Notes: a model not told the origin generated them from the sequence alone. Numbered from the stretch's first letter, positions 6,343 through 32,000 are shown. The stretch: DNA of 32,000 nucleotides from Cylindrospermopsis raciborskii Cr2010 (GCF_003367075.2 NZ_CP065936.1:2640001-2672000); one strand, 5' to 3'. Numbers and translations: made by a program.

Positions 6343-6370
6343 TTCATTAACAATATTAATTAAACAATAT

Positions 6371-7416: not shown

Positions 7417-7496
7417 TCTGGGAACAAAATACAGATAAATTTTCCATTCCCACAAGCTTTGATAGAATAAAAATAAATCGAGCAAAGGTAACTTTT

Positions 7497-10792: not shown

Positions 10793-10868
10793 ACAGGAGA
10801 CTCCACGTGTTCAAGAATTAAGGCATGATTATCGTCGTTGGGTAGATACAGTTGATATTAGAAATTTA

Positions 10869-11372: not shown

Positions 11373-13449
11373 AAACTGCTGTAATAGGGGCTTTAAGCCT
11401 CTATTAAGTTTCCATTGATTCCACTTCCCAGAGGGAAGCGGGTGAGCAAACTTAACAAACAAGGAGGTTGGTACGAAGTTTCCATTGATTCCACTTCCCA
11501 GAGGGAAGCGGGTTTATGAAGAATTAGAGTCTTCTAAAGTCTTATTGCGGGTTTCCATTGATTCCACTTCCCAGAGGGAAGCGGGTTCCATAATTTGTTT
11601 AGCATAATCTAGAGCTCCTTGTATGTTTCCATTGATTCCACTTCCCAGAGGGAAGCGGGTTTAAAGGCTAGATACCCCTAACCAAATGAACAGTTTTTCG
11701 TTTCCATTGATTCCACTTCCCAGAGGGAAGCGGGTTAACTGTCCACCTGTTTTTTAGTCTCACTGAATAATTGTTTCCATTGATTCCACTTCCCAGAGGG
11801 AAGCGGGTCAGATGGGCATCGATTGGCTGTCATTGAAGTACCAGTTTCCATTGATTCCACTTCCCAGAGGGAAGCGGGTTGCCCAACTTCGGCGTTCTGG
11901 GAGCTAATGGTCAGTTCAGTTTCCATTGATTCCACTTCCCAGAGGGAAGCGGGTGTAAGTACGAGATGACAAACTTCTGGTCATCCAAATATGTTTCCAT
12001 TGATTCCACTTCCCAGAGGGAAGCGGGTTCAAGAGATATGAGGAGCTGTCAGGGACGACCTACCCGTTTCCATTGATTCCACTTCCCAGAGGGAAGCGGG
12101 TAAGAGACTGTAATCCTGGTAATCGCAGCGGTTGTTTCAGTTTCCATTGATTCCACTTCCCAGAGGGAAGCGGGTTTTACGCAGCAAAAGGCTTTGATTT
12201 TGCCTCGCTCAAAGAGTTTCCATTGATTCCACTTCCCAGAGGGAAGCGGGTGAGATAAGGTTATGGAGATTGTTACTTTGATGAATGTTTCCATTGATTC
12301 CACTTCCCAGAGGGAAGCGGGTAGGATTTGTGGGAAGATTACCAATCCGACCAAACACCAAGTTTCCATTGATTCCACTTCCCAGAGGGAAGCGGGTACT
12401 TCTGGAATAAAGTCGATCATCTGATCGACGAGTTAGGTTTCCATTGATTCCACTTCCCAGAGGGAAGCGGGTTGATGTTCAAACAGGTAGCCCACAGGAA
12501 TATGACCTAGTTTCCATTGATTCCACTTCCCAGAGGGAAGCGGGTAATCTGCAACGCCCTATCAGAGCTACAAGATCAGCTAGATGTTTCCATTGATTCC
12601 ACTTCCCAGAGGGAAGCGGGTCAAATATCTCGCTATCCCCCACTGCTCAGCCGCATTCTTGAGTTTCCATTGATTCCACTTCCCAGAGGGAAGCGGGTTA
12701 TCTGCATTACGCAGAGACCCCAACGGCATACATTGGGAGTTTCCATTGATTCCACTTCCCAGAGGGAAGCGGGTAGGTAGACGAGGTGAGACAATGCTTA
12801 CGATAAACGTGTTTCCATTGATTCCACTTCCCAGAGGGAAGCGGGTCCCTCCATTTTAAGCCCTTGCCCTGACTGGTGTCTAGACCCACTTTGCGAAGGT
12901 CAGCAAAATTTCTCTCTTTTTCACCTCCACTACCCTCAAAATAATGGCTGAAACCCTTACCCCACAAGGCTGCGAGGTTCCCGACGAAATAATAGGCATT
13001 CCAGCGTTTTTTCTTGACCTTCGCAGTTCCTTCGTTAATTACTAGTTTTAGTGTCATTTGTATTACTTTACTTTTTAAATATACTTGGTTAATAAAATTT
13101 AAAATAAATCCTGGAATCCCCCTATTATAGAGAATTTATAGAATAATAGTCAATATTGTAGAACCAACAACATAATGTAACATTTAAATTTTCTAATGTC
13201 AGTCGTTTATTGGAGATTTTAGAGAACAAATCCAGCCAGGTTCTAGATGAGATGAAAAAACTATCCGAACCACTGTTTTTATTAACACTACTACTGGCGA
13301 TCGCATGAGATTCAAAATACCCAATAGGCATCAAGTATAAAGTTTATAGTGGATTACTAGCACACCAGTATACCACAAAATCTATATATAAATATAGCAA
13401 CTTAAAACATTAGCAAAATGGTAAAGTCTAGAAAACAGACTGTGTAAGA

Positions 13450-13616
13450 GCGATCGCCTATGAGGAGTGCTTCGCAATCGCCCATCTGCAAAAAAACACT
13501 GTACTAGGACAAATGTTACAATAGTAACCTGTAAGATGCAATCGCTTTGCGACAGCATAAAGCTATAAGTAAAATCTGTTAAGTGCAATCTCCCGTAGGG
13601 AGTGCTTCGCAATCGC
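13450..13616 (+). repeat. HIP1-associated small dispersed repeat, copy C (most complete copy)
   Basis: GCGATCGCCtatGAGGAGTGCTTCGCAATCGCC - body (CTGCAAAAAAACACTGTACTAGGACAAATGTTACAATAGTAACCTGTAAGATGCAATCGCTTTGCGACAGCATAAAGCTATAAGTAAAATCTGTTAAGTGCAATCT) - CCCGTAGGGAGTGCTTCGCAATCGC. The two GGAGTGCTTCGCAATCGC ends are direct repeats. Confidence 0.8.
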
Positions 13617-13838: not shown

Positions 13839-16800
13839 ATGATACCATCAGTACTAGCAAACCAAATTCGCAACTATGTAGAAGACTTTATTTCTACTAC
13901 TTTTCATCCGACTAATAGTCCTTTTAAAAATTTAATTGGTGATTTTTTACATCCACCTATAATAAGAGAAAGAGAGGGAGAATCAGGAGAAGAATCAGGG
14001 GTTTATCAGCCTGGAAATAATGTGTGTAAGGGACCCTATGTTTCATTGGGTATGCCTTTTAAAACTGGCTCTATTGGTAGGGACTTTTTCCCCCATATTC
14101 CCCTAGATTTTATCCCCTATTTACATCAACAAGAGGCTTTTACTCGCTTGATGCCTCCCCATTATCATTCTACTTTAATTGCAACGGGGACTGGGTCAGG
14201 AAAAACAGAGTGTTTTTTAATTCCCGTTTTAGAACATTGCCGAATTTATTCTCAAGAAGGGGGAATCAAGGCAATTCTCATCTATCCGATGAATGCCTTG
14301 GCAACGGATCAGGCTAAACGAATAGCTAAGTTTATTAATTCTATTCCTTCACTAAAGGGGAAGGTTACGGCGGGGTTATATGTGGGTGAGGAAGATGAAA
14401 ATCCCACTAAGGTGATGACTAAAGAAAAGGTTATTACTGATAAACAAATACTCTTGGCATCTCCCCCGGATATTCTGCTGACCAATTATAAAATGTTAGA
14501 TTATCTGTTAATTCAACCCAATTCTCAATCTCTATGGCAAAATAATCAACCAAACACTCTCCGCTATCTGGTGGTAGATGAGTTCCATACTTTTGATGGT
14601 GCCCAAGGGACTGATTTAGCTTGTTTATTACGTAGGCTGAAATATCGCTTGCAGGTGCCTGAAAATTTTTTAACCTGTGTGGGAACTTCTGCTACCCTGG
14701 GAGTGGGGTCTAATGCCAAAGGGTCAGGGAATATTTTACGCTATGCTGAAACTATATTTCAAGAGTGTTTTGAAGACCAGGCCTTAATAGAAGAAAAACG
14801 CATTCCTGATATGGAGTTTTTAGCGGGAAGTCTACTGAATGTAATTCCCATACCTACTCAAGATTATAAAGAGGTTCTGAGTGCCGAAAATTATCTGTTT
14901 CCAGCAGATTATATTCGCGCCCAAGCTGAACTTTGGTTACAAAGGTCTGGGGGATATGGCATATCAGAACCTGGTGCAGATTTAGGAGAAGAATGGTGTC
15001 TAGAATTGGGTAGAGATTTGAAAACCTTGCCTATTGTTCATAATCTGGTGCGAATTCTGTCTAAAAAGAGCTATACTTATGATGAAATTATAGAGCAGAT
15101 TGGTCGTCGTCTTCATTTCCCTAATAATAATAGTCCGGAGAATAGGTATTTTAATTTTTTGTTGTTGGATAGTATATTTTCTTTAATGGCTGTAGCTCGC
15201 TCTCAAGATGTGGCTAATAGTTCTGTGGTAAGACCTTGGGCTAATTTAAGGGTACATGTATGGTTCCGGGAACTAAAACGAATGGTGGCTACCGTGGAAC
15301 CAACACCACGGCTTTTATTTTCCGATGATTTAACAGCAGAAATTAAAGAAAAAACTAAAACTATGCCTGTTATTCACTGTCGTAGTTGTGGTATGACGGG
15401 ATGGGGTGCAATAAAAAGATCCCAAAATGATGATAAATTAATTCTAAATTTACAAGATTTCTATCAGGCATTTTTTAGTTATAATCCTCTGACTTGTTTT
15501 ATTTTTCCTAAAAATAATCCCAAAAATAATCCCAAAAATAATCTAGATCCTGCTTTTGCTGCTCGTCTTTGTTCCAAGTGTTTAAAAATTAATTTGCCTG
15601 ATGCAGTTACTTGCCATAGTTGTAATTCCCAAGAATTAATAGATGTAGAAATTCCAGATATACTGAAAGTAAAAAAAGCAAATAAGCAGTCTAAGTCTGT
15701 TTCTACTCATGACTGTCCTTACTGTCAAGCTACTAATAGTTTATCTATTTTAGGTTCTCAAGCTGCTAGTTTGACCAGCACTATTGTGAGTACCCTTTAT
15801 ACTACTCAGTTTAATCAAGATAAGAAACTGTTGGCTTTTTCTGATTCAGTTCAAGATGCAGCCCATCGCGCAGGATTTTATAATTCTCGAACCTATCGCA
15901 CTACCCTTAGAACAGCTATTTTTCAAGCAGTGCAGAATTTAAGCGCGGGAGAGGGAAAGATAAGTTTGAAACAACTAGTAGAGGGTTTTTCAGACTATTG
16001 GTTGACTACCTTAACCAAAGAGGGTGATAAGGATTACACTAAATATGTGGCCACCTTTCTTCCCAGTGATTTACATTGGTTGCAAGAATGGGAAAAACTG
16101 ATAGAGAATCCCGACTCTTTAAGCAAAGAGGAACTTACTCGTTTGCTGAGTTTTTTAAAAAAACGTCTGGAATGGGAAGTTGTAGCTCAGTTTAGTCATC
16201 GCGCTACCATTGGTACCACCCTCGAGTCTAGTGGGTTATGTAGTGTGGGTTTTAATCAATCTATTATTGAGCAGTCTGTACAAGAATTAATTATTTATTT
16301 AAATAATGAGATAGAGCTATTGCATGGTGTGTCATACCCCAAAGTGCATGAATTTATATTTGGTATACTTAATCATCTACGCCTTTTAGGGGGCATATAC
16401 CAACCTGTAGTGGCTAATCATGGGTATATTGAAACAGGGGGTAACCATTTTGTATGGAGTAAGTTATGGTTTATGCCTAAATTTAGTTATTCAGCTACTA
16501 TTCCTAGATTTTTGACTACCAACAATGGAGAAAATAGCTGGGAGGCAGTTTTTTCTAATTCTCCTAGGGGAAGTTGGTGTGAAAATTGGACAGAGCGGGT
16601 GTTTAGTTCTTTTGGTTTATTGATGAGAGAACAGTGCAAACAAATTCTCTACCAGACCCTGGATATACTGACTAAAACGAAGATTTTAGAAAGGAGAAAA
16701 TCGGAAAAAGGGGATGTTTGGGGAATTCCTATGAATGTGATGGAGATTTTTCCCCAGGGTGATGTTTTTTTATGTGATAGCTGTAATCACTCAGTCACTC

Positions 16801-18233
16801 TCTCCCCCCATGCTGGGGTAGGAGGTGCTTGTTATAACAGTAAATGTAACGGAAAATACCAGATTCCCAGTTCAGGTCTAGTTTATTATTCCCAACTTTA
16901 TCAAAGGGGTCAGGTTCACCGGGTGTTTGCTCAAGAACATACAAGTATGCTTAGTCGTCCACACCGGGAGAACTTAGAAAGATTGTTTATTACTAGTGCC
17001 CGTGCTTGTGACCCTAATTTGATTTCTGCTACCTCTACTCTAGAAATGGGTATTAATATTGGTGACTTATCTAGTATAGTTCTTTGTTCCATTCCCCCCA
17101 ATAGTGCTAACTTTCAACAACGGGTAGGAAGAGCAGGGCGAAAACAGGGTAATGCACTCATCAGTGCGATCGCTACTGGAAAAGCCCATGATTTATTTTT
17201 CTATGCAGATCCTGGGGAATTGATAGATGGGAGGGTAGAACCAGCGGGGTGTTATTTAAACGCAGCAGCTATCTTAAAAAGACAGTTAACAGCTTTTTGT
17301 TTAGACTGTTGGGTGACCCAGGGGGTAAGTAAGGAGGAGTTACCGATTCAATTGCAAAAGAGTTTAGATGCGGTAGATAAGTGTGATGAAGGACGTTTTC
17401 CTTACACCTGGCTGAAGTTTATTGAGCGTCATAAGAAAAAGTTGCTAGATGATTTTTTGTCTTTGTTTACAAATCTAAGGGAAGGAAGGGAGAAAACCAG
17501 GGATAACACTCAATATGAAGACTATAATCGTGTGGATGGGGAATATTTAAGGAAAGAATTAGGTGCTTTTATAGGGATAACTCCAGGAGATGGAATACAC
17601 CTGGATATATTAGAAAGGTTGAAGGAAATAAATAAAGAGCGTAAGCGTATAAAAAATCTAATAGATTCTATTGGAAGAACCATAAAGAAAATGGGTGAAA
17701 AACCGGATACGATTCAAAATTTACCGAACAACCAGGATCTAAAACAGGAACTAGAAGAGGAAAAACTAGCCTTTCAACAACTAATTAAAGAAATTAATCA
17801 GAAAAATTTGTTTAACTTTCTCACAGATGAGGGGATGTTACCCAACTACTCTTTTCCGCAAGCGGGGGTAACCCTGCGCTCTGTCATTCTCCGAAGGGAG
17901 AAACCAGATGAGGATAGCTCCAATAGAGAAACTACTTACAAAAACCTAACTCCCTTTGCTTATACTTATGAGAGACCGAGCCAAATTGCTATTAGAGAAC
18001 TTGTACCTGGTTGTGTGTTTTATGCAGAGGGTAGATCTATAACCATAGACCAAATAGATTTAAAACTATCTGAACCAGAAAAATGGCGCATCTGTCGCAA
18101 CTGTCATTATGCTGCACCTGATTTTTCTAATAGCCAAAAAACTTGTCCTCGCTGTGGAGACACCATGTGGGGAGACCAAGGTAGATTACATGATGTGTTG
18201 TCTCAAACAAGTAATAGCCACCACCTCAGATAG
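13839..18233 (+). CDS. Large DExH-box SF2 helicase with Zn-ribbons (DISARM DrmA-like, or the N-terminal two-thirds of a Druantia DruE-like protein)
   Basis: 1,464-aa ORF. Motif I ATGTGSGKTECFLIP, Ia LIYPMNALATDQ, II VVDEFHTFDG, III GTSATLG. After a ~700-aa insertion come motif V SATSTLEMGINIG and VI QQRVGRAGR. Also present are FSDSVQDAAHRAGFY, several CxxC pairs (CRSCG, CSKC..CHSC, CPYC), and a C-terminal LPNYSFP + CRNC..CPRC module typical of DUF1998-associated helicases. Confidence 0.85.
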   Translation: MIPSVLANQIRNYVEDFISTTFHPTNSPFKNLIGDFLHPPIIREREGESGEESGVYQPGNNVCKGPYVSLGMPFKTGSIGRDFFPHIPLDFIPYLHQQEAFTRLMPPHYHSTLIATGTGSGKTECFLIPVLEHCRIYSQEGGIKAILIYPMNALATDQAKRIAKFINSIPSLKGKVTAGLYVGEEDENPTKVMTKEKVITDKQILLASPPDILLTNYKMLDYLLIQPNSQSLWQNNQPNTLRYLVVDEFHTFDGAQGTDLACLLRRLKYRLQVPENFLTCVGTSATLGVGSNAKGSGNILRYAETIFQECFEDQALIEEKRIPDMEFLAGSLLNVIPIPTQDYKEVLSAENYLFPADYIRAQAELWLQRSGGYGISEPGADLGEEWCLELGRDLKTLPIVHNLVRILSKKSYTYDEIIEQIGRRLHFPNNNSPENRYFNFLLLDSIFSLMAVARSQDVANSSVVRPWANLRVHVWFRELKRMVATVEPTPRLLFSDDLTAEIKEKTKTMPVIHCRSCGMTGWGAIKRSQNDDKLILNLQDFYQAFFSYNPLTCFIFPKNNPKNNPKNNLDPAFAARLCSKCLKINLPDAVTCHSCNSQELIDVEIPDILKVKKANKQSKSVSTHDCPYCQATNSLSILGSQAASLTSTIVSTLYTTQFNQDKKLLAFSDSVQDAAHRAGFYNSRTYRTTLRTAIFQAVQNLSAGEGKISLKQLVEGFSDYWLTTLTKEGDKDYTKYVATFLPSDLHWLQEWEKLIENPDSLSKEELTRLLSFLKKRLEWEVVAQFSHRATIGTTLESSGLCSVGFNQSIIEQSVQELIIYLNNEIELLHGVSYPKVHEFIFGILNHLRLLGGIYQPVVANHGYIETGGNHFVWSKLWFMPKFSYSATIPRFLTTNNGENSWEAVFSNSPRGSWCENWTERVFSSFGLLMREQCKQILYQTLDILTKTKILERRKSEKGDVWGIPMNVMEIFPQGDVFLCDSCNHSVTLSPHAGVGGACYNSKCNGKYQIPSSGLVYYSQLYQRGQVHRVFAQEHTSMLSRPHRENLERLFITSARACDPNLISATSTLEMGINIGDLSSIVLCSIPPNSANFQQRVGRAGRKQGNALISAIATGKAHDLFFYADPGELIDGRVEPAGCYLNAAAILKRQLTAFCLDCWVTQGVSKEELPIQLQKSLDAVDKCDEGRFPYTWLKFIERHKKKLLDDFLSLFTNLREGREKTRDNTQYEDYNRVDGEYLRKELGAFIGITPGDGIHLDILERLKEINKERKRIKNLIDSIGRTIKKMGEKPDTIQNLPNNQDLKQELEEEKLAFQQLIKEINQKNLFNFLTDEGMLPNYSFPQAGVTLRSVILRREKPDEDSSNRETTYKNLTPFAYTYERPSQIAIRELVPGCVFYAEGRSITIDQIDLKLSEPEKWRICRNCHYAAPDFSNSQKTCPRCGDTMWGDQGRLHDVLSQTSNSHHLR

Positions 18234-20397
18234 GGAAAGTCGGTTTGGGGATGAGAATGAAGACAGGGACTCTAGTTTTTTTAAAAACCATTTGTTAGTA
18301 GATTTTGACCCATCCTTTAAGGAATACACTTATCTGGTAAAGAGTACAGAATTTCCCTTTGGATTTGAGTATATATCCCGAACCAAATTCCGAGAAATAA
18401 ATTTGGGGAAGACCCTCCCCCACGGGAAAAATGTAGAAATAGCAGGAGAGAACTTTTTTACAGAAGGATTTCGTATTTGTAAGGGGTGTGGGAAGATTTT
18501 AAGAAAAAATAACACTCAATCAAGTCAAGAACGAGACCATGCTCTAACTTGTAAATGGCGAGAACGACCAGAAGCAGCGGAGACCATAGAGACCCTTTAT
18601 TTATACCGAGAATTTGAGTCCGAATCCATTAGATTTTTAATGCCAGATCAAAGATTTTGGAGCGAACAGGGGTTACATTCCTTTATTGCTGCATTGCAAT
18701 TAGGCTTGAAACAAAAATTTGGAGGAAGGGTAGACCACCTGCAAATTACCCAAGTGCAAGAACCCCAACCAGATAATAAACTGCGTAAATCCTTTCTTTA
18801 CCTATATGACACAGTGCCCGGAGGGACTGGTTATTTGCGACAGTTGTGTGAGAACAGGGTAGATAGTAGACCAGAGGATCTGCGCCAGGTGTTTCAACAG
18901 GCTTTAAATGTATTAATTAATTGCAGTTGTCAAGAAAGGGGAGAAGATGGTTGTTATAAATGTTTATTTGCCTATCGTAATAGCTTTCACCAAGACTTTA
19001 CTAGTAGTAAAGCAGCCCAATCCCTACTGAGTGAAATTTTGAACCACTGGTCAGATTTAGGAGAAGAGAAGAGCCAAAATCTTTCTGGTCTGTCCATTAA
19101 CTCCGACCTAGAAAGTGAACTAGAGTCTAAATTCATTCAAGCTTTGACAAGCTATACAAGAAATGGAGAAGAAACCAAATTACAACCATTGTTACTCCAT
19201 GGCAAAAAAGCCTACTACCTAAAAATAGGGGAAATGGCTTGGAACATAGAGCTACAAGTTCCTTTAGGTAAAGAAGAAGGACTACCTCTAAATTGCAGAG
19301 CAGATTTTGTGTTTTATCCCGCCCATAGTCGGGTTAACAGTTTACCCATAGTAGTATTTACTGATGGATGGGAGTATCACCAAGAAAGAATAGACCAGGA
19401 TTTAGAGCAACGTCTAGGGATTATAAAAACCGGAGATTATTGGTGTTGGTCACTGACCTGGGCGGATATAGATAAACAATTAAACCAGAAAACCACCTTT
19501 TATAACTCCACCACTGATTATGGGGGGACTAAATCTGGAATGGATTCCTCATTGAACAATCCACAGATTAATCAGAGAAGGAAAGAACTATATGAACACT
19601 ACCAATGTAGTCAACTTGCCCATTTAGAAGATAAAAGTAGCTGGGAATGGTTAATGGATTATCTTTATTCTCCCATAGATAGTTTGTGGCAAAACTGGGC
19701 ACTGCTGCGTACTATCCTACAGGCACAGAAGAAAAACCAGACCCCCCCTGCTATAGAAGATTTTTTAGCACCCCAACTAGAAATGTGGAATCGACCTCAA
19801 AACTATCATAGTGGAGTAATAGAATTATCAAAGAATCTAGAGATCTTTACCCTAGTTGACCACAAGCGAAATAAGGAATTGAACAAAAATGGCAGTTTAG
19901 TTTTAATTCGGTTGCAAGAAATTTACCAATCGGACTGGCAAGAAATGCTACGCATGTTAAACCTCTATCAATTTTTACCCTATACTTATGCCATGACCAC
20001 AACCAGTGACAGGGACAACCTTAGCACCATGGTTCCCACCTGGGAAACCAGGTTAGATACAAATATACATAATAATATTAGTAGAGGTGTAAATAAAGAA
20101 TGGCAGAGTATAAAGGAGTTAATCATAGAAGAGGATCTAGTACCTTGGATTGACCAGATGATAGAGAACCAGTGGAATTTACCAGTAGTGGGCTATGAAT
20201 TAGAGAACAAAAAGGGAGCAGTGATAGCCAGTGCGGAACTAAGCTGGGTAGAAGAGAAAGTAAGTATTGTCACCACAGTAGAAGACAAACATATATTTGA
20301 GCAAACTGGGTGGCATAGCTTATTAGTAGAAGAAGTATCCTCCCAGATAGAGAACCTAAACCAGTTTTTAAAAACAACTATTAAGGAGAGAAGATAA
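18190..20397 (+). CDS. DUF1998/MZB-domain protein (DrmB-like) with a C-terminal endonuclease-like domain. The start is uncertain; it may be the frameshifted continuation of the preceding helicase.
   Basis: The frame is +1 relative to the upstream ORF and is open from 18109. The first plausible ATGs are at 18190/18193, with AAGG 8 nt upstream. DUF1998 hallmarks are present: FLYLYDTVPGGTGYL and the Cys cluster INCSCQERGEDGCYKCL. At 19111-19385, ESELESKF..ELQVPL..RADFVFYP..VVFTDGWEYH resembles the Vsr/DUF559 PD-(D/E)xK pattern. Confidence 0.75.
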   Translation: MMCCLKQVIATTSDRESRFGDENEDRDSSFFKNHLLVDFDPSFKEYTYLVKSTEFPFGFEYISRTKFREINLGKTLPHGKNVEIAGENFFTEGFRICKGCGKILRKNNTQSSQERDHALTCKWRERPEAAETIETLYLYREFESESIRFLMPDQRFWSEQGLHSFIAALQLGLKQKFGGRVDHLQITQVQEPQPDNKLRKSFLYLYDTVPGGTGYLRQLCENRVDSRPEDLRQVFQQALNVLINCSCQERGEDGCYKCLFAYRNSFHQDFTSSKAAQSLLSEILNHWSDLGEEKSQNLSGLSINSDLESELESKFIQALTSYTRNGEETKLQPLLLHGKKAYYLKIGEMAWNIELQVPLGKEEGLPLNCRADFVFYPAHSRVNSLPIVVFTDGWEYHQERIDQDLEQRLGIIKTGDYWCWSLTWADIDKQLNQKTTFYNSTTDYGGTKSGMDSSLNNPQINQRRKELYEHYQCSQLAHLEDKSSWEWLMDYLYSPIDSLWQNWALLRTILQAQKKNQTPPAIEDFLAPQLEMWNRPQNYHSGVIELSKNLEIFTLVDHKRNKELNKNGSLVLIRLQEIYQSDWQEMLRMLNLYQFLPYTYAMTTTSDRDNLSTMVPTWETRLDTNIHNNISRGVNKEWQSIKELIIEEDLVPWIDQMIENQWNLPVVGYELENKKGAVIASAELSWVEEKVSIVTTVEDKHIFEQTGWHSLLVEEVSSQIENLNQFLKTTIKERR

Positions 20398-21393
20398 TGG
20401 TCGAATTAAAACATCCCGTCAAATTAGCCATTGCAGACAGTTTTTTAGACCAGTTTGGGCGATTACCCAAAAACATTCAGAGTAAAGTTACCTCCTTTCT
20501 CAATCGGTTCAAACAAAACCCCACCAGTAGTGGAATTAACTATGAGACCATAAAAGACTGTAAAGATAACCGCATGAGGTCAGTGAGAATAGATTTAGAA
20601 TACCGGGCAATTATTCTCAAACCAGAAACCGGGAACTTGTATCCTTTATTATGGGTAGGTAAACACGATTTAGCCTATTTTTGGGCCCAAAAAAGAGTTT
20701 GTCAAATCAATCAGATATCTGGAGCTTTACAAATTATTGATACAGAAGAAATACAAAATACAACAGAAAGACTCACCACACAAAAACAGGAACAACCCGG
20801 GCGATTTGACCATATCAAAGACGAAGATTTAATGAGATTGGGCGTACCACAAATGTTAATTCCTGCCCTGCGAAAACTAGTTACAGATGCAGACGTAGAT
20901 AACATACTATCACATCTTCCCCAGGAATGTACAGACCGTATAATTATGTTAGCAGCTGGCTATAAACTTCCAGAAATCTACCAATTAATAGAGACCCCCA
21001 AAACAACTATTGATGTAGAGAATATAGAAACAGCGCTAGAAAATCAGGACACCCTGAGTCGGTTTGTAGTTATTACTGAAGACATAGAACTAGAAGAGAT
21101 GTTAGCAGCACCCCTAGAAAAGTGGCGTGTATTTTTACATCCTAGCCAGCGTAAACTAGTAGAACGAGACTGGAATGGTCCCGTTAGAGTTTTAGGAGGT
21201 GCAGGGACTGGCAAAACCGTAGTCGCCCTACACCGAGCTAAATGGTTAGTGCACCATCGTTTTAATATGCCAGGCGATCGCATATTATTTACGACCTACA
21301 CCAGGAATTTAAGCATAGACATAGCATCAAGTTTAAAGACAATAGTTACACCAGAAGAGATGGAGCGGATAAAAGTAGTAAACCTAGATAAAT
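20397..21393 (+). pseudogene. UvrD/Rep-like SF1 helicase, 5' portion (interrupted by IS): RelE/ParE-like N-terminal domain + Walker A
   Basis: The ATG overlaps the upstream stop (TAATG). The N-terminus reads FL..F..LP..IQSKV..FL..F..NP...G.N.E.....D.R.RSVRID..YRAI.L......Y.LLWVG.HD.AY.WA. It is followed by VLGGAGTGKTVVALHRA (motif I) and ILFTTYTRNL (Ia). The native frame ends at the IS boundary, after ..VVNLDK. Confidence 0.8.
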
Positions 21394-23592: not shown

Positions 23593-24716
23593 ATAAATGG
23601 CTACTAGAGTTTTTTAAACAACAGAACATAAACATTAAAATTGCCTATGATAAAGAAACCAGACCATTATGGGAAAAAGCATATAATAAAAGAGAAGAAG
23701 CAAATTTAAGCCTAGACTTTTATAAACAAGAATGGGAAGAAATAATACAGACAAACGAATGTAAGAACTTGAGAGACTACCTAAAAGTAGTAAGGACAGG
23801 GAGAGGGACAAGATTAAATAGAGAGCAGAGACAGAAAGTGTGGAAAGTGATAGAGGAATATATGAACCTGCTGAGTGAAGAGGGGTTAAGGGAACCAAAA
23901 GACGCCATGAGAGATGGCATAGAGATATTAAAACAGAACCCCAGGGGGATAAAATATCAGAGCGTCATAGTAGACGAAGCCCAGGACATGAGCAAAATAG
24001 CATTTGAGCTAATTAGAGCCATAGTAGGGCCTGCAAAACCCAACGACATATTTATAGTAGGGGATGGGCACCAAAGGATTTATGGGAGTGCGGTGAAATT
24101 GAGCCAGTGCGACATAGATATTAGAGGGAGGTCAAAAAAACTGATTTTAAACTATCGTACCACAGACGAGAACCGCAAATGGGCCACAGACATATTATCA
24201 CCCCTTACCATAGACGACCTAGATGGTGGTATAGACAACCTAAAAGAATATCGTTCCTTATTGCATGGAGAGAAACCCATAGTAAAAGGATTTAACAGCA
24301 TAGAAGAAGAAATAGAATACATTCTAAATTTTTTAAGAGAGATAAACAAAACAGAGAAAGAGAGCGTAACCTGTATAGCATTAAGAACCAAAGAACTGAT
24401 AGAGAGATACAAAGAGGGGCTAAAAGAACTAGAGATACAAGAAATAATTGGAGAGCAAGAAGAGAGAGGAGAGAGGATAAGAATAGCCACCATGCACCGA
24501 GTAAAAGGATTACAATTTGACCATATAATTTTACCCAGTGTAAACGCCGATATTATTCCTTTCAAGAGCGCCCTAGAGAGGTCAGCGGATTTAACAGCTA
24601 AAGAGCAGTTTTTAACCAGAGAGAGATGCTTAGTGCATGTAGCTGCGACCAGAGCCAAGAAACAGATTTTAGTTACCTATTATGGTAAACCCAGTCCCTT
24701 TTTAAACTTATCCTGA
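23593..24716 (+). pseudogene. UvrD/Rep-like SF1 helicase, 3' portion
   Basis: Motif II VIVDEAQDMS, III IVGDGHQRIY, IV ILNYRTTDEN, V/VI ATMHRVKGLQFDHIILP and HVAATRAKKQILVTY. It is in the same frame as 20397-21393 once the IS plus one ATAAAT copy (2,205 bp = 735 codons) is removed. Confidence 0.85.
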
Positions 24717-24733
24717 TTTTTTCCAATACTCTG

Positions 24734-24790
24734 GCAATCGCCCACGGGGAGTGCTTCCTAATCGCATTTATATCCCGTAGGGGTGTTGAG
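24734..24790 (+). repeat. HIP1-associated small dispersed repeat, copy D (short)
   Basis: GCAATCGCCCACGGGGAGTGCTTCCTAATCGC followed by a partial second unit (CCCGTAGGGG), in the gap between the SF1 helicase and the SNF2 gene. Confidence 0.65.
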
Positions 24791-24898
24791 CTCCCCCAAC
24801 CCAACCTACGATTATCCACGACAAAATATCTATCCAAAGATAGATGAAAAATCGTGGCAAAAGGATTCTGCTACAATAATGCAAAAGTAAAAAAAAGC

Positions 24899-27784
24899 AT
24901 GGAACTAGCACCGGGCGCACGCATCTTATGTAGAGATGCAGAATGGTTAGTAAAAGATGTATCCCTCTCCTCCGATGGAGATAAAATAATTCAGGTCGTA
25001 GGGGTGTCAGAGTTTATTCGTGGCACCAGATCCCTATTTCTAGAAGAATTAGAATCTAAAAAAGGTCCCTTTGAAGTGCTAAAAGCAGAGAAAACTGGAC
25101 TGGTTACAGATACCTCACCCGAATATAGAAATAGTCGTCTCTTTATAGAAGCAAATCTAAAACAAATAGCCCCCCCCGACTCAAAAATATATGTGGGACA
25201 CAGAGCAGCAATGGATACTCTTAAATATCAGCTCTCTCCTACAAGTATGGCTCTGAAAATGCTACGCCAAAGAATGCTCATAGCAGATGGAGTAGGTCTA
25301 GGTAAAACTCTCGAATGTGGTATTCTCGTAGCAGAATTAATTGCACGACACCGGGGAAGAAGAATTTTGGTGGTAACCAGTAAGTCCATGATGGCTCAGT
25401 TCCAAAAAGAATTCTGGTTCCGTTTTACTATCCCCTTGGTAAGGTTGGATTCTACAGAGGTTCAACGCATAAAATCTATTATACCTACTAACCATAATCC
25501 CTTCTATTATTATGACCGCACTATTATATCTATAGATACCCTAAAACAAGACAGAGAATATCGTAATTATTTGGAGAAGGCAAATTGGGATATTATTATT
25601 ATTGATGAAGCTCATAATGTAGCGAAAAGAAGAAGAGCAGAAGATAATTCTCTACGCTCTAAATTGGCTCAGCGTCTCTCAAAACGCTCCGATACCTTAA
25701 TCCTCCTTTCTGCTACTCCCCATGATGGAAAACCACAAAGTTTCGCCAGTTTGATGAATATGCTGGATCCTACTGCCATTGCAGATGAGTCTGATTATAC
25801 CAAAGATGACATCCGAAATTTGTATATCAGACGGTTTAAAAAGGATGTTTTGGCAGATTTACGGGATAATGTCCCAGAACGTCATTCTCAATCTATTGAT
25901 ACCCCAGCTTCCGAAAGTGAAGAAAGGGTATTTGATTTGTTGGATAACTTAAACCTGTCCGGTGATAAGCAATTACGGGGTGGACAGTTATTTAAAACCA
26001 CCCTGCTAAAGTCTATTCTTTCTAGTCATAAGGCTTGTTTGGCAACGGTAAATAACAGGTTGAAAAAGCTAAAAGAAGGGAATAAAAAAAATCCGGTGGG
26101 TGGGGAAAATCATCGAGCAGATATAGAGGCTTTACAAGAGTTACAACAGTCTTTAGGTGAAGTAGGTAAGGAAGATTTTTCTAAATATCAAAGACTTTTA
26201 AAATTGATAAAGCAAGATTTAAGCTGGAATGGGGAAGATAGTGGGGATAGGTTAGTAATTTTTACAGGTAGGTTAGAAACCTTAGATTTTCTGTTTACAG
26301 AATTGCAGAAAGATTTAAAGTTGAAATCAGGAAGTATTTTAAAATTAAAAGGAGATATGTCTGATACCCAGCAGTTAGAGGTAGTAGAACAGTTCTCTAA
26401 AGAAAAGGATCCAGTGAGAATTCTGTTAGCAACAGAAGTAGCTTCCGAAGGAATTAATTTACATTATTTAAGTCATAGATTAATTCATTTTGACATACCA
26501 TGGTCTTTTATGACATTGCAACAAAGAAACGGTAGAATAGACCGTTATGGACAAAGTAAAAAGCCCGAGATTAGGTATCTCTTGACTAGATCCCGTAGAA
26601 ATAGAATGGATGAGGTACATCGTATTATTAAGGTACTCTTGGCCAAAGAGGAACAGGCTACTAAAAATATAGGAGATCCCGCAATTTTAATTGGGGTGTT
26701 TGATGCTCAGGAGGAGGAGAACTATATTTCTGACGTGATAGAGCAGGGAAAGACTGCTGAAGAGTTTAATAGTATGTTAGAAAACAACAATAAAAAGGAG
26801 GAGGGAGGGCTTTTTGACTGGTTTGAAAATGACCAGGAGGATGATTATTCAAGTTCTCCACAACCAGAAGAGCTATGCGAAACAGGAAGTTTATTGAGTC
26901 TGTTTGATTCGACCTTTGATTTTGTCTCTACCGCCCTAAGTTCTGATATAGTAAATGTCACAAATTTAAATATAAATCAGCAAGTCAGGTTTATTGAATT
27001 GCAGTTGCCAGATGAATTACGGTCTCGCTATAAAAGATTGCCTAGAGAAATTATTCCAGAACCAAAAGATTTATTATATCTCACCGATTCACCCCAAGTG
27101 ATAAAAAAGGAAATTGCTGATGCGCGTCAACAAGAAAAACAATGGTCAATGAAACAATATCTGTGGGAATTACATCCCCTAGTAGAATGGTTAACCGACA
27201 GATGTTTATTCCACATTCCTCGACATCAAGCACCAGTAATTCAACTACCTAGCGACAAAAAAACCTTAACTTTTATCTGTTTTGGCAGTTTCTCTAATCG
27301 CCAAGGTTCACCAATTATTAGTCGTCAATTTTCAGTTATTGTGGATCATAATAACCCTTATAGAATAGAAGATTTTGCTGAAACTATAAAAAAAGTAGGC
27401 TTAAATAAGCCCATACCTAATCCTGGGAATATAGACATTAGTGAAGTGAGTAGTTTTTTAAAGGAGGTAGTAAAAAAAGGGCAGGAATATTTAGAAAAAG
27501 AAAGAAAGACAGTACAACAAGAGCTGAATGAGAGAATAGCCAAAGAAAAAGGTCGTTTAAAGGACCTACGGCAGTATCATCTTCAAAAATGGAATCATTT
27601 CTACCTAGACAGTGGAATAAATCAAAAAATGACACAAGAAAAGGTAGAAAAAAAACAACAAGAAATTGATAAAATGTTTCAAGAGCATGAGCAGTGGGTA
27701 GAACGCTATATGAGCACTAGTAGCGCCAAAGCTCTTAATTCCCCCACTCCCTATATTAAGTTAATTGCTGTGTTGAGAGGTTAG
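24899..27784 (+). CDS. SNF2-family ATPase/helicase (DISARM DrmD-like)
   Basis: Motif I LIADGVGLGKTLECG, II IIIDEAHNV, III LLSATPHDG, V LLATEVASEGINLH, VI QQRNGRIDRYGQ. About 370 aa of C-terminal extension has no motifs I recognise. The start is set at ATG 24899; the ORF track uses GTG 24854. Confidence 0.88.
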   Translation: MELAPGARILCRDAEWLVKDVSLSSDGDKIIQVVGVSEFIRGTRSLFLEELESKKGPFEVLKAEKTGLVTDTSPEYRNSRLFIEANLKQIAPPDSKIYVGHRAAMDTLKYQLSPTSMALKMLRQRMLIADGVGLGKTLECGILVAELIARHRGRRILVVTSKSMMAQFQKEFWFRFTIPLVRLDSTEVQRIKSIIPTNHNPFYYYDRTIISIDTLKQDREYRNYLEKANWDIIIIDEAHNVAKRRRAEDNSLRSKLAQRLSKRSDTLILLSATPHDGKPQSFASLMNMLDPTAIADESDYTKDDIRNLYIRRFKKDVLADLRDNVPERHSQSIDTPASESEERVFDLLDNLNLSGDKQLRGGQLFKTTLLKSILSSHKACLATVNNRLKKLKEGNKKNPVGGENHRADIEALQELQQSLGEVGKEDFSKYQRLLKLIKQDLSWNGEDSGDRLVIFTGRLETLDFLFTELQKDLKLKSGSILKLKGDMSDTQQLEVVEQFSKEKDPVRILLATEVASEGINLHYLSHRLIHFDIPWSFMTLQQRNGRIDRYGQSKKPEIRYLLTRSRRNRMDEVHRIIKVLLAKEEQATKNIGDPAILIGVFDAQEEENYISDVIEQGKTAEEFNSMLENNNKKEEGGLFDWFENDQEDDYSSSPQPEELCETGSLLSLFDSTFDFVSTALSSDIVNVTNLNINQQVRFIELQLPDELRSRYKRLPREIIPEPKDLLYLTDSPQVIKKEIADARQQEKQWSMKQYLWELHPLVEWLTDRCLFHIPRHQAPVIQLPSDKKTLTFICFGSFSNRQGSPIISRQFSVIVDHNNPYRIEDFAETIKKVGLNKPIPNPGNIDISEVSSFLKEVVKKGQEYLEKERKTVQQELNERIAKEKGRLKDLRQYHLQKWNHFYLDSGINQKMTQEKVEKKQQEIDKMFQEHEQWVERYMSTSSAKALNSPTPYIKLIAVLRG

Positions 27785-27786
27785 AT

Positions 27787-30700
27787 ATGGCACTAGTAGG
27801 AATTTCAATTGAAAATGAGTTTTATGCGCCTTATTATGTAGATACCTTGCTGAGTAAAGATGTAGATGTAAAAAGCAAAGAAACTGAAGAGAAACCAGCT
27901 TATGAGCTTTTGGAAAAAATACAACAAGAGTATTTTCAGGTTCGGAATAGGGTAGAAAGAACTACAAACCAACAAGAGAAGTATGAATTACAAAGTGATT
28001 TAATAAGAAAGCTATTATCTATTTTAGGCTATGAATATAAAATAGATTTTAAGTTATTAGATGACGATAGAATATTACCTATTGTGGCGGAGGTCAAGAA
28101 AAACTCTGGCGAACCCTACGTGTGGATATTATCTGCTTTTAATCTGGGTATAGAAACCAGTGATATTCTCTCTTTAGAAATAAATCAAGAGCAGATTAAT
28201 GAAATTAATTCCACCTACCTACTTAACAGTAAAGTTCAAAAGGGGAAAAAATCCTCCCGGGAACCACAAGTAGTACAAGGAAATTTAGAAGAGCTTTTAA
28301 ACGACGCTATTTTTGCCCAGAATGCACCCCCAAAATGGGTAATATTGATAAATATGGAGCAAATAGTATTAATAGACCGTTATAAGTGGAATGCTTCTCG
28401 ATTAATTAGATTTGATTTAGCAAAGTTATTAGAAGAAAGAGATAAGAAATCTCTCATGGTAACTGCTAACCTATTACATCGGGAATCTATTGTCCTAAAA
28501 GACGGTACTTGCTTATTAGATATAATAGAAGAAAAGAGCTACCGACATAGTTATAGTATTTCCGAAAACTTAAAGTTTGCCCTAAGAGAAGCCATTGAAA
28601 TACTAGGGAATGAGGCCATTTATTACTGGCAAAAGTCAGGAAAGAGAGTATTCGATAATCAAAAACAAAAAGAACAGGGTGTAGTAGAAATAGACCCTCA
28701 GCAATTAAAAAAAGAATGTTTAAGATGGATATATAGATTGCTATTTTTATTTTATATAGAAGCCAGACCAGACCTAGGATATATACCCATGGGATCTGAT
28801 GTTTACCGTCAAGGATATAGCCTAGAAGCATTGCGAGATGTAGAACTGGCTAAATTAACAGAAGAAGATGAAGAGAATTATTACCTAGATTGGTCAATTA
28901 GGTTACTCTTTGAATTGCTGTGGTCAGGCTATCCATTAGATAAACAAAAACAACTAACCACTGAAAACCCCTCTTTAGCTGATACACCCATTCATAAGAC
29001 CTTTCGTCTCCCCTCCTTGCAAAGTCATCTGTTTGATCCCAAAAACACAGAAATGCTAAACGAAGTTAAATTTCGTAATGTAGCCCTCCAAAAAATAATC
29101 CGGTTAATGTCCCTATCAACACAAGAGGGGAAAAGGGGGAGAATTAGCTACGCCCAACTAGGTGTAAACCAGTTAGGGGAAGTATATGAAGGTCTTTTAA
29201 GTCTTTCTGCCTTTTTGGCCCAAGAGGATTTATATGAAGTGCAACCGTGGAATAAAAAGGAATCTGGAGATGAGTCAGAAGAACAGGAAGAGGAAGACCT
29301 AGAAACTAATGAGAGGGGGAATGTAACCCGGGGGAAAACAGTAAAGGCCAAAGAGAATTTAAAACAAGATCTGGAAAAAGAGAATTTAAAACAAGATCTG
29401 GAAGTAGCATATTTTATTCCAGAACATCGGATGGATGAATTTAAGCAAGAGGAGTTGGTAATAGATTGGGAGAAAGGGGAATTTCGTAAACATCCCAAAG
29501 GGAAATTTTTGTTTCGGTTAGCTGGGAGAGATAGAGAAAAGAGTGCTAGTTACTATACTCCACAAAGTTTAACCAAATGTTTAGTTAAATATGCTTTAAA
29601 AGAACTATTAGAGGGTAAGCAAGCAGACGATATATTAGAGCTAACTATATGTGAACCTGCCATGGGGAGTGCAGCTTTTTTAAATGAGGTAATAGACCAG
29701 TTAGCAGAAACGTATTTGGAAAGGAAACAAAAAGAAAAAGGAGAGTTAATAAGTCATGAACAAGCCATGCGAGAGCAACAAAAGATTAAGATGCTCCTAG
29801 CCGATAGAAATGTATTTGGGATTGATAAAAATCCTATAGCCATGGAACTAGCAGAAGTATCCCTATGGTTAAATTGTATTTATGCGTCAGAAGCTGATAA
29901 AGATAACATATTTATTCCTTGGTTTGGCTTCCAGTTGCAGTGCGGAAACTCCTTAATAGGAGCCAGGAGACAAATCTACTACTTAAACAATATTACGGAA
30001 AAGAAAAAGAGCAAGAGTAGTAAAAATACCAAGTGGTATGAACAAGAACCAGAACAACTATCCTTGGGGAAAAATTTACCCAAAGGGGGAATTTTTCATT
30101 TTCTGTTGGGAGATCCGGGTATGGGGAACTATACAGATAAAATCATAAAAAAGATGACTGGGGAGAACCTCAAGAAAATAGATAATTGGCGAAAAGAGTT
30201 TTGTCAAGAATTAACAGACGAGCAAGGGAGCTATGCCCATACATTAAGTGAGAGAATTGATAAACTGTGGCATCATTATGCCCAAGAGTTAAAAAGAATT
30301 AGAAAAAGAACCACAGACAGTCTAAATATATGGGGACAGGAGGAAGAAAAAAAGCAAGAAATAGCCCTGGAGAAGAAAGATAAGATTCATGACCAGGAGA
30401 AACTTGCAGAAGGGATAGAGAACGCCACATCCTATAGGAGATTAAAGCTAGTCATGGACTACTGGTGCGCCCTTTGGTTTTGGCCCATAGAAAAAGCAGA
30501 GGAATTACCAGACAGAGAGCAGTTTTTTTGTGACCTAGCTATTATTTTAGGCGAAACAGAAATGTTGCTGGATAGTAACAGACAGCTATCTCTATTTCCT
30601 GAGACCCAAACCCCACAAGAGGGGGAAGAGTTTATTAATCAATGGGGATTTGTTAACTTAAACAAATTAAAGCAGAAGAATATTCGGTTACAGATAGTAG

Positions 30701-32000
30701 ATGAAGTTGTTAACAACCAGCGATTTTTCCATTGGGAACTAGAATTTGCAGATATATTTTGGGAGAGAGGAGGTTTTGACCTCATATTAGGAAATCCCCC
30801 CTGGATAAAGATGGAATGGAAAGAAGGGGGAATTTTAGGGGATTATGACCCCAGGATAGCCATCCGCAACCTATCAGCGAGTGAATTAGCGAAAAAGCGG
30901 GAGGAGCTTTTTGATAGACATCCTGGATTGAGGGCTGCATATATACAAGAGTATGAAGAGATAAGCGGAACCAAGAATTTTCTCAATGCGGAACAGAATT
31001 ATCCATTGCTAAAAGGGTCACAAACTAATTTATTTAAGTGTTTTTTACCCCAGGGGTGGAGATACACCAGAGAAGGAGGAGTGTCAGCTTTTTTACATCC
31101 TGAGGGGGTTTATGATGACCCCAAGGGGGGAAGGTTACGTAGGGCAATTTATCAGCGATTGCGTTATCATTTTCAGTTTCAAAATCAATATATTCTGTTT
31201 CCTATAGGACATAGGGTTAAATACAGTTTAAATGTCTATGGTTCAGAGAAATTACCTGAATTTACAACCATAGCTAACCTGTTTACCAGTAAAACCGTGG
31301 ATGAGTGTTTAGAGCATGATGGTAAGGGGGAGGTGAAAGGAATTAAAGATGAATCAAATAAGTGGAATGTACAGGGACACAAAGAGAGAATTATCACTGT
31401 AAATAGGGAGAGACTAAATCTATTTTCCCAACTCTATGATGATGAGGGAACCCCAGGGGAAGAAGCGCGACTGCCAACCTTACATTCCCAGCAGTTAATG
31501 GGGGTACTGGAGAAATTTGCAGCCCAAGAAAGGCGCTTAGGTGATTTACAGGGTGAGTATTTTGCTACAGAAATGTGGCATGAAACCAATTCGCAAAAAG
31601 ACCAAACTATTAAGCGTAACACCCAATTTGCCCAGGGTGCAGAACAGTTGATATTATCTGGCCCCCATTTCTTTGTGGGTAATCCTTTAAATAAAACCCC
31701 CAGAAAGGTTTGTAAGACCAAAAGTGATTATGATGTTATTGACCTGACCCAAATTCCCCCAGATTATCTCCCCCGCACCAATTACGTCCCAGACTGCACT
31801 CCCAGAGATTATCTTGACCGCACCCCCCGTGTTCCCTGGGGTGAGCAAAAACCCGTCACTGATTTTTATCGGGTTGCTTATAGAAGAAGGTTAAGTCAAT
31901 CGGGTGAAAGAACCTTAATCCCAGCAATTATCCCTAAACAAGTTGGACATGTTCATACTTGTATTTCTTTCACATTTGAAAATACCAAACATCTCATATC
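27787..32000 (+). CDS. Very large gamma-class N6-adenine DNA methyltransferase (DISARM DrmMI / PglX / Eco57I-like), 3'-incomplete at the window edge
   Basis: Not in the ORF track because it never terminates. I translated frame +1 from ATG 27787 (2 nt after the SNF2 stop) to 32000 and found no stop (>1,404 codons). AdoMet motif I LTICEPAMGSAAFLNE (~29640) and catalytic motif IV DLILGNPPWIK (~30780), with YYTPQSL upstream, are typical of Eco57I/PglX-type enzymes. Confidence 0.85.
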   Translation, partial: MALVGISIENEFYAPYYVDTLLSKDVDVKSKETEEKPAYELLEKIQQEYFQVRNRVERTTNQQEKYELQSDLIRKLLSILGYEYKIDFKLLDDDRILPIVAEVKKNSGEPYVWILSAFNLGIETSDILSLEINQEQINEINSTYLLNSKVQKGKKSSREPQVVQGNLEELLNDAIFAQNAPPKWVILINMEQIVLIDRYKWNASRLIRFDLAKLLEERDKKSLMVTANLLHRESIVLKDGTCLLDIIEEKSYRHSYSISENLKFALREAIEILGNEAIYYWQKSGKRVFDNQKQKEQGVVEIDPQQLKKECLRWIYRLLFLFYIEARPDLGYIPMGSDVYRQGYSLEALRDVELAKLTEEDEENYYLDWSIRLLFELLWSGYPLDKQKQLTTENPSLADTPIHKTFRLPSLQSHLFDPKNTEMLNEVKFRNVALQKIIRLMSLSTQEGKRGRISYAQLGVNQLGEVYEGLLSLSAFLAQEDLYEVQPWNKKESGDESEEQEEEDLETNERGNVTRGKTVKAKENLKQDLEKENLKQDLEVAYFIPEHRMDEFKQEELVIDWEKGEFRKHPKGKFLFRLAGRDREKSASYYTPQSLTKCLVKYALKELLEGKQADDILELTICEPAMGSAAFLNEVIDQLAETYLERKQKEKGELISHEQAMREQQKIKMLLADRNVFGIDKNPIAMELAEVSLWLNCIYASEADKDNIFIPWFGFQLQCGNSLIGARRQIYYLNNITEKKKSKSSKNTKWYEQEPEQLSLGKNLPKGGIFHFLLGDPGMGNYTDKIIKKMTGENLKKIDNWRKEFCQELTDEQGSYAHTLSERIDKLWHHYAQELKRIRKRTTDSLNIWGQEEEKKQEIALEKKDKIHDQEKLAEGIENATSYRRLKLVMDYWCALWFWPIEKAEELPDREQFFCDLAIILGETEMLLDSNRQLSLFPETQTPQEGEEFINQWGFVNLNKLKQKNIRLQIVDEVVNNQRFFHWELEFADIFWERGGFDLILGNPPWIKMEWKEGGILGDYDPRIAIRNLSASELAKKREELFDRHPGLRAAYIQEYEEISGTKNFLNAEQNYPLLKGSQTNLFKCFLPQGWRYTREGGVSAFLHPEGVYDDPKGGRLRRAIYQRLRYHFQFQNQYILFPIGHRVKYSLNVYGSEKLPEFTTIANLFTSKTVDECLEHDGKGEVKGIKDESNKWNVQGHKERIITVNRERLNLFSQLYDDEGTPGEEARLPTLHSQQLMGVLEKFAAQERRLGDLQGEYFATEMWHETNSQKDQTIKRNTQFAQGAEQLILSGPHFFVGNPLNKTPRKVCKTKSDYDVIDLTQIPPDYLPRTNYVPDCTPRDYLDRTPRVPWGEQKPVTDFYRVAYRRRLSQSGERTLIPAIIPKQVGHVHTCISFTFENTKHLI

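Follow-up and report, generated by a model that had tools for sequence, protein, structure and literature searches.

A probable ARMADA type II anti-phage locus on a cyanobacterial chromosome, with the gene order armC-armD-armA-armB and two disrupted genes

ARMADA type II is an anti-phage system of four proteins, ArmA, ArmB, ArmC, and ArmD, described by Bell et al. in 2025 (PMC12458937) and in mBio in 2026 (PMC13463889). ArmA is a BrxHII/RapA-like SNF2 helicase, ArmB is a PglX-like methyltransferase, ArmC is a YprA-like helicase with a fused DUF1998 domain and a C-terminal Vsr-type nuclease, and ArmD is marked by a RelE-fold N-terminus on a UvrD/GajB-like helicase (PMC12458937). The gene order A-B-C-D was reported as "strict," and classes were defined by the YprA clade and the gene content (PMC12458937). 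In Escherichia coli, ARMADA gives direct, nonabortive protection against many phages; in two strains, any single deletion among the four genes abolishes defense, which needs the Walker A motifs of ArmA, ArmC, and ArmD as well as the NPPW motif of ArmB (PMC12458937, PMC13463889). Bell et al. call ARMADA the "missing link" between DISARM and Druantia, with a SNF2 ATPase and a methylase in common with DISARM class 1 and with ArmC and DruE in the same major YprA helicase clade (PMC12458937); the type II system is reported as predicted with DefenseFinder (PMC13463889/PMC12458937). Here, we analyze a 32,000-nucleotide (nt) stretch of Cylindrospermopsis raciborskii Cr2010 (GCF_003367075.2, NZ_CP065936.1:2640001-2672000), called the window below, whose plus strand carries a run of large co-directional open reading frames (ORFs) from position 13839 to the window end. 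All coordinates are positions in the whole window, and the operon region is 13839-32000. A first-pass annotation, made from the sequence alone, had seen in it a class 1 DISARM-like operon of five genes.

This run is very probably a chromosomal copy of the ARMADA type II system of a Raphidiopsis/Cylindrospermopsis-like cyanobacterium, with its genes in the order C-D-A-B. The large ORFs are co-directional as annotated, but they represent four genes rather than five, and two of these (armC and armD) are disrupted. ARMADA type II has already been published and validated experimentally, and the gene set found here is not undescribed. Of the architecture that the first-pass annotation had thought new, perhaps an undescribed subtype or a DISARM/Druantia-like hybrid, only the order C-D-A-B departs from what is catalogued; the hybrid idea does fit the placement by Bell et al., but of a system already published (PMC12458937). 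What is new is the swapped module order (C-D-A-B) in a Nostocales plasmid/chromosome lineage, together with a natural pair of one decayed and one intact copy, the decay having struck the helicase-nuclease half and left the SNF2-methylase half open.

The identification comes from comparison with the E. coli systems (NCTC 12900, EDL933 OI-172, and ATCC 8739), which have the same four proteins at 34 to 44% identity. The window ArmA, ArmB, ArmC, and ArmD align end to end with their E. coli counterparts, at 43.5, 44.0, 33.6, and 43.0% identity, respectively, and all eight residues mutated in the published work (in E. coli numbering, ArmA K136 and D236, ArmB G605 and N971, ArmC K110 and D234, and ArmD K266 and D454) are conserved at the aligned positions. 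The E. coli reference locus (L085) was reached by way of a Mangrovibacter homologue; its proteins are 952, 1,643, 2,113, and 704 amino acids (aa) long, and the same eight residues fall in the expected motifs. Its neighbors are another DEAD/DEAH helicase gene, which would be Druantia III druE judging by its position, an integrase, and a tRNA-Phe gene, matching Fig. 5 of the paper, and related DNA is present in 526 of 5,426 complete E. coli genomes. The layout of the proteins is also the same, that is, a YprA helicase with an interlobe insertion fused to DUF1998, a RelE-UvrD/GajB protein, a SNF2 protein, and an NPPW methylase, with a Vsr-like C-terminal nuclease of ArmC (a candidate in the window) and without a phospholipase D-type (PLD) gene. 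The window copy differs in its order, in the armC frameshift, and in the insertion sequence (IS) within armD; moreover, the E. coli type II loci lie on tRNA-linked islands, whereas here we find the system on a cyanobacterial chromosome and on the plasmid of a close relative.

Type I ARMADA was represented by Deinococcus radiodurans DR_B0135, a type I helicase according to its entry in Table S1 of Bell et al. (PMC12458937); a fragmented Chroococcidiopsis plasmid locus (L089) was set aside as a reference. The type I locus shares with the window a YprA-like helicase, with a Vsr-type nuclease (a candidate in the window), a SNF2 protein, and a PglX-like methylase, and its order, ArmC-ArmA-ArmB, resembles that of the window in being helicase first. 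However, type I is without ArmD, and its ArmC (1,706 aa) is shorter and similar to that of the window in the helicase motifs alone (117 + 68 bits). Against E. coli ArmC, the conceptually fused window protein aligned over aa 1 to 2158 with 33.6% identity and 1194 bits. These scores, together with the RelE-fold ArmD, place the locus in type II, not type I.

The first gene, armC, is split. Its 5' part (13839-18233; ORF1, 1,464 aa) encodes a YprA-like DExH helicase with RecA1, an insertion of ~750 aa, RecA2, a coiled coil, and the first Zn ribbon. Pfam places DEAD at aa 96 to 288 and Helicase_C at aa 1036 to 1102, so the lobes are about 750 aa apart, close to the ~700 aa first estimated, and the Walker A K122 and DEFH D247 residues are conserved. 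The top PADLOC profiles for ORF1 are DruE3 (E 3e-83) and DruE1 (E 3e-81), which cover parts of the protein, while DrmA matches locally (E 3e-14). The 3' part (18202-20397) holds the rest of the OB-CON region, the MZB/DUF1998 Zn cluster (PF09369; Pfam E 3e-11 in ORF2, 18109-20397), the candidate Vsr-like core, and further C-terminal domains, and it matches positions 1489 to 1689 of the DruE1 profile. The helicase and DUF1998 protein, annotated at first as separate genes, are one gene broken by an AC deletion (18199-18200; GTTACGTCTC to GTTGTCTC), defined against an intact orthologue that is 99% identical (L086, described below). The deletion accounts for both the premature stop of ORF1 and the out-of-frame overlap of 125 nt between the two ORFs, and the family consensus GRxRxMLRLRQVMATT spans their junction. 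The conceptual fusion is 2,184 aa long, the size range of DruE as first remarked, and has homologues in the thousands; the best 120 are all single proteins, 115 of them of 2,087 to 2,203 aa, and most cover 99 to 100% of the fused query. Programmed frameshifting was considered and rejected, the 99% identical orthologue and the listed homologues having a continuous ORF.

Within the C-terminal part of ArmC, a candidate Vsr-like PD-(D/E)xK core (about 19294-19473, plus strand) agrees with the endonuclease-like module that the first-pass annotation had placed in the DUF1998 protein. Residues D57, D77, G78, H82, D89, and R93 of this core are invariant in 32 homologues (D..TDG..H..D..R pattern), and hhalign gave a weak match to E. 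coli Vsr over the RADFV..FTDGxxYH stretch (probability, 51%; E 1.5e-4). Two further features of the protein are of interest. A PKNN tandem peptide repeat (PKNNPKNNPKNN; 15500-15535, aa ~555 to 566) lies in the insertion region and differs from the orthologue by one 12-nt unit. The last ~90 aa (~20095-20370, ORF2 aa 663 to 754) match the C-terminus of PADLOC ZorE2 of Zorya II (E 7e-10; profile positions 283 to 373 of 375), and a domain common to the ArmC and ZorE2 C-termini might be conceivable. Zorya II colocalizes with ARMADA II in E. coli (PMC13463889/PMC12458937).

The second gene, armD, overlaps the end of armC in the TAATG junction at 20397 that had been annotated. Its 5' part (20397-21392, plus strand) encodes a RelE-fold N-terminus (aa ~9 to 115, nt ~20421-20741) followed by a helical linker and by the first portion of a UvrD/GajB-like core with the Walker A motif GAGTGKT (K273); the 3' part (23598-24716, plus strand) encodes the rest of the helicase, including the Walker B motif VIVDEAQD (D458). 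PADLOC GajB (E 4e-21) and Pfam UvrD_C (E 4e-18) match the gene, as does Pfam UvrD-helicase in the 5' part. The superfamily 1 (SF1) helicase seen at first is thus right as to its UvrD-type domains but not as a continuous gene: the two halves lie in separate ORFs (20397-21572, N-terminal; 23559-24716, C-terminal), with an IS1634-family IS of 2,201 bp between them (21393-23593, minus strand). This element has 24-nt terminal inverted repeats (92% complementary) and a TAAA duplication (21389-21392 and 23594-23597), and its transposase ORF (21722-23413, minus strand) scored 410.8 bits with NCBIfam transpos_IS1634 (cutoff, 100). It is not found in the orthologous plasmid locus, and copies 86 to 88% identical occur in plasmids of Dolichospermum, Anabaena, and related Nostocales. 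Excision of the IS with one TAAA (20397-21392 joined to 23598-24716) restores an uninterrupted ORF of 704 aa, which shows 43% identity to E. coli ArmD over aa 9 to 701. The AlphaFold2 model of the N-terminus (confidence score pLDDT, 90.1) retrieved from the PDB with Foldseek top matches consisting almost entirely of RelE/YoeB/YafQ/HigB/ParE toxins, the best having a target-normalized template modeling score (TMt) of about 0.7 to 0.79 and a root mean square deviation of 2.3 to 3 Å over about 86 residues. Pfam gave for this N-terminus a faint ParE_like match alone (E 0.16), and a PDB profile search with its alignment returned helicases only. As judged from the predicted fold, the hallmark of ArmD, a RelE-fold N-terminus on a UvrD/GajB helicase, is present.

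The remaining two genes are open. The armD-armA spacer (24717-24898, 182 nt) corresponds to the ~180-nt gap with a dispersed repeat noted earlier and contains one 24-nt HIP1-type unit (24734-24757); the orthologous plasmid spacer has two more such units, a 48-nt indel. The armA gene (24899-27784, plus strand) encodes an intact BrxHII/RapA-like SNF2 ATPase of 961 aa, also annotated in the orthologous plasmid, with Pfam SNF2-rel_dom and Helicase_C domains and matches to PADLOC DrmD (E 3e-96) and BrxHII (E 1e-61) and to NCBIfam RapA (4e-39). Its identity to E. coli ArmA extends over the full length, with K136 and D236 conserved. After a 2-nt spacer (27785-27786), as annotated, armB (27787-32000, plus strand) encodes a PglX-like N6-adenine methyltransferase that is open for 1,404 aa and reaches the window end; the orthologue has 1,630 aa, and about 230 C-terminal aa therefore lie beyond it. 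Pfam (Eco57I and N6_Mtase) and PADLOC (IIG-type, E 2e-203; DrmMI, E 7e-58) bear out the large NPPW methyltransferase of >1,400 aa first described, as they do the SNF2 ATPase; identity to E. coli ArmB is 44% over aa 1 to 1386 of the latter, and the GxG (G627) and GNPPW (aa 1002 to 1006; NPPW N1003) motifs are conserved. A type IIG restriction-modification enzyme, suggested by the best PADLOC match, was rejected, because the alignment with ArmB runs the full length of the protein and the N-terminal 555 aa yielded no nuclease domain, Pfam giving no match there. Exact-sequence lookups found no record of protein P0027 or of the window SNF2 protein, the latter tried with each of its two start codons. 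Overall, the domain calls of the first-pass annotation were right. With the 2023 PADLOC models and with NCBIfam, these genes receive piecemeal labels (DruE, DrmD, GajB, and type IIG), inviting the reading of a "novel hybrid."

From position 13585 on, the window is 98.7% identical to the plasmid p-r.curvispora1 of Cylindrospermopsis curvispora GIHE-G1 (NZ_CP060823.1; L086), which carries, at 48686-65359, four intact genes in the order armC-armD-armA-armB (2,182, 704, 961, and 1,630 aa; ArmC, WP_187707595.1), followed by a GUN4-domain gene. The order is A-B-C-D in the next nearest relatives, those of Raphidiopsis BLCC-F218 (54% identity), Lyngbya, and Limnospira, and in Crocosphaera watsonii (L008), ArmA is found 7 kb downstream of ArmD, beyond parA, parB, and xseA. 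The C-D-A-B order is a real but rare exception to the published strict order. On the C. curvispora GIHE-G1 chromosome (CP060822.1), IAR63_07870 is entered as an ARMADA type I helicase in Table S1 of Bell et al.; going by that entry and the type II plasmid copy, both types coexist in the lineage.

Compared with the plasmid orthologue, the ratios of nonsynonymous to synonymous polymorphisms (pN/pS) are low in armC (0.12) and armD (0.09), where the differences are mostly synonymous. Given these values and an IS with intact inverted repeats and target duplication, both lesions are inferred to be recent. The AC deletion would end ArmC ahead of the DUF1998 and candidate nuclease regions, and the IS1634 element splits armD; because both genes are disrupted and each of the four is needed in E. 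coli, the copy should, by analogy with that host, be nonfunctional as a defense. On the other hand, armA is open, as is armB as far as the window shows it, both with intact catalytic motifs, and adenine methylation may persist without intact armC and armD. The armB pN/pS ratio (0.57) is raised by two local differences from the orthologue, a short and highly divergent mosaic patch downstream of NPPW (31180-31290, aa ~1132 to 1167) with small indels (+4, -7, and -3 nt) and a 27-nt in-frame tandem duplication (KENLKQDLE, 29350-29403). The patch may be a recombination tract in a target-recognition region.

We scanned species-representative genomes and obtained 80 loci, which represent 12 or more phyla (Cyanobacteria, Desulfobacterota, Proteobacteria, Firmicutes, Bacteroidota/Rhodothermota, Planctomycetota, Acidobacteriota, Spirochaetota, Thermotogota, Synergistota, Verrucomicrobiota, and Myxococcota), with neighbors detected by tblastn. 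ArmD lies directly after ArmC in 59 of the 62 loci with enough sequence (median start offset, -3 nt) and further downstream in two of the remaining three. The co-occurrence of the SF1 helicase, on which the first-pass annotation had made its proposal depend, is thus borne out, and its conservation with the other genes marks it as a core component. Of the 47 loci whose 10-kb flank is complete, 39 have ArmB upstream in the same orientation, and two more have it at the flank edge. The ArmB-to-ArmC spacer is bimodal, being <200 nt in 14 loci and containing 1.2 to 6 kb of unrelated genes in 25; in one case (L003), this cargo includes DUF3800 and DUF559 genes. Neither a fifth gene nor a PLD is conserved: clustering of the other ORFs in the 80 loci gave no family in >7 loci, the largest clusters being artifacts of the truncated ArmB query. 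The absence of PLD is therefore normal for this system. Three loci (L040, L041, and L055) have ArmC and ArmD without ArmA or ArmB within 10 kb upstream of ArmC. One of them (L041, Salinivenus) adjoins a pPIWI-RE Argonaute system, and in Lyngbya aestuarii (L001, 21299-26417), ARMADA II is next to Cas5d, DevR, DevT, and Cas6 with TniQ and TniB, a set that looks like a CRISPR-associated transposon-type module.

Could the locus still be a variant of class 1 DISARM, that is, DrmA, DrmB, DrmD, and DrmMI with an SF1 helicase added and DrmC lost, as the first-pass annotation held? DISARM class 1 (DrmD, DrmMI, DrmA, DrmB, and DrmC) does have a related SNF2 protein, a large adenine methylase, and a YprA helicase with DUF1998, the first two being the components that Bell et al. 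describe as common to both systems, and DrmD is the best match of the SNF2 protein in both PADLOC and NCBIfam, with the methylase matching DrmMI as given above. However, in DISARM the helicase and DUF1998 are separate genes of a different YprA clade, whereas their separation in the window is an artifact of the 2-nt deletion, the homologues being fused. The helicase matches DrmA only locally, far below DruE, and the SNF2 protein scored 348.9 bits (E 8e-104) with NCBIfam DISARM_DrmD (NF038317), under the curated cutoff of 610, which makes it a relative of DrmD and not an equivalog. Further, DISARM uses the PLD nuclease DrmC rather than a fused Vsr-like domain and is without a RelE-UvrD helicase; as noted in the first pass, no DrmC-type PLD gene is present in the window, nor does the orthologue have one within 11 kb downstream of armB, and PLD was found in 0 of the 80 loci. 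Given the artifactual split, the DrmD score below the cutoff, and the absence of PLD, we conclude that the locus is not DISARM class 1, a reading that we regard as extremely unlikely. Druantia (DruABCD, DruM/F/G, or DruH with DruE) resembles the locus in the size of ArmC and in the DruE profiles that top its PADLOC matches. Nevertheless, the nuclease of type III DruE is PLD-like, versus a candidate Vsr-like one in ArmC, ARMADA adds a methylase and a SNF2 ATPase, and the E. coli gene beside armA that we take as Druantia III druE scored 48 bits against the window ArmC. The window, its orthologue, and the related loci are all without the Druantia partner genes (DruA-D, DruM/F/G, and DruH), and the locus is therefore not Druantia. 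A functional operon, in which the ArmC split would reflect an error of sequencing or would be natural and tolerated, like that of DrmA/DrmB, seems very unlikely as well. An indel of 2 nt could come from assembly, but the break falls within a conserved stretch, and the overlapping ORFs offer no good in-register start codon. In any case, armD is cut by the 2.2-kb IS, which could not be an assembly error, and ArmD is needed for full defense in E. coli (PMC12458937, PMC13463889).

The arrangement of the genes also bears on whether these are two independent neighboring systems, a Druantia-like ArmC-ArmD and a BREX/type IIG-like ArmA-ArmB, each self-sufficient. The two pairs occur in either order (the window and its plasmid orthologue versus most other loci), unrelated genes lie between them in 25 of 39 loci, three loci with ArmC and ArmD are without the other pair in the 10 kb upstream, and in the window the C-D module alone is broken. 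Yet the modules are within 10 kb of each other in 39 to 41 of 47 loci across many phyla, and although the tight junctions are those of A-B and C-D, the B-C junction is also tight in 14 loci. Since each of the four genes is needed for defense in the two E. coli strains (PMC12458937, PMC13463889), we find two self-sufficient systems improbable. Another reading is that ARMADA II consists of separable ArmA-ArmB modification/reader and ArmC-ArmD helicase-nuclease modules that can be shuffled, spaced, or apart. This is a tentative proposal and, in our judgment, rather doubtful. If it were true, the C-D-A-B form in Nostocales, mobile between plasmid and chromosome, could be a distinct sublineage, and loss of C-D in that sublineage would turn ArmA-ArmB into an orphan adenine methylase whose role is epigenetic or residually protective.

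Several points weigh against an ARMADA type II assignment. The order C-D-A-B conflicts with the A-B-C-D published as strict for type II, and ArmC was assigned to this type by pairwise scores rather than by tree placement among the helicases of Bell et al. The experiments on ARMADA have been limited to E. coli, the cyanobacterial members being known from sequence. A Vsr-type fold of the ArmC C-terminus is weakly indicated at the sequence level: Foldseek with the AlphaFold2 model of the 420-aa multidomain C-terminal part (pLDDT, 85.6) found nothing significant, TnsA (PD-(D/E)xK) alone being suggestive (E 0.1), and neither Pfam on the nuclease region nor a PDB profile search with the core alignment gave a match. 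In addition, the 2-nt deletion in armC might conceivably have arisen in assembly.

By analogy with BREX, DISARM, and Druantia III, ArmB and ArmA would mark or read host DNA at a sequence motif, whereas ArmC would load on phage DNA ends or single-stranded DNA intermediates, translocate, and cut by means of its Vsr-like nuclease. ArmD would act as an accessory helicase or a sensor.

The locus of the window is chromosomal. Upstream of the operon, the window holds a gene for a pyridoxal phosphate-dependent enzyme, ndhJ/K/C, rubredoxin, and the housekeeping gene ycf48 (3938-4960), followed by a small island. Between ycf48 and a CRISPR array, there are a Dcm-type C5 cytosine methyltransferase (5032-6342), a DUF2085 membrane protein, IS630 remnants (7045-7417), and a Uma2-family endonuclease-like gene (7293-8297), and the region 5032-8297 looks like the edge of a defense or mobile island. 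The CRISPR array (9536-12846) lies directly upstream of the ARMADA locus; its 31 repeats are 36 nt long (GTTTCCATTGATTCCACTTCCCAGAGGGAAGCGGGT), and its spacers measure 34 to 41 nt. Degeneracy of the repeat at the left end (9536) makes it probable that the leader is at the right-hand side, within the AT-rich 12.85 to 13.8 kb. An IS630-family element (about 10333-11384, helix-turn-helix plus DDE_3) splits the array, and no cas genes were found in the window. The array is flanked by a 69-nt direct repeat in two copies 90% identical (9368-9436 and 13548-13616), each with the 24-nt HIP1-type unit (GCGATCGCCCGTAGGGAGTGCTTC), which is dispersed at 8442-8536, 9405, 13450, 13585, and 24734. The homology to the C. 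curvispora plasmid starts exactly at the copy at 13585, and the HIP1-type repeats may be recombination junctions.

This locus adds a cyanobacterial example to a defense system that has so far been tested in E. coli only. It also indicates that the strict order reported for type II has exceptions and that two gene pairs behave as movable modules. The broken copy described here and the intact 98.7% identical copy on the GIHE-G1 plasmid make up a natural knockout pair. From the methylomes of this pair, one could tell whether methylation by ArmB is independent of ArmC and ArmD, and the phage sensitivity of the two would bear on the role of the system in bloom-forming Raphidiopsis/Cylindrospermopsis.

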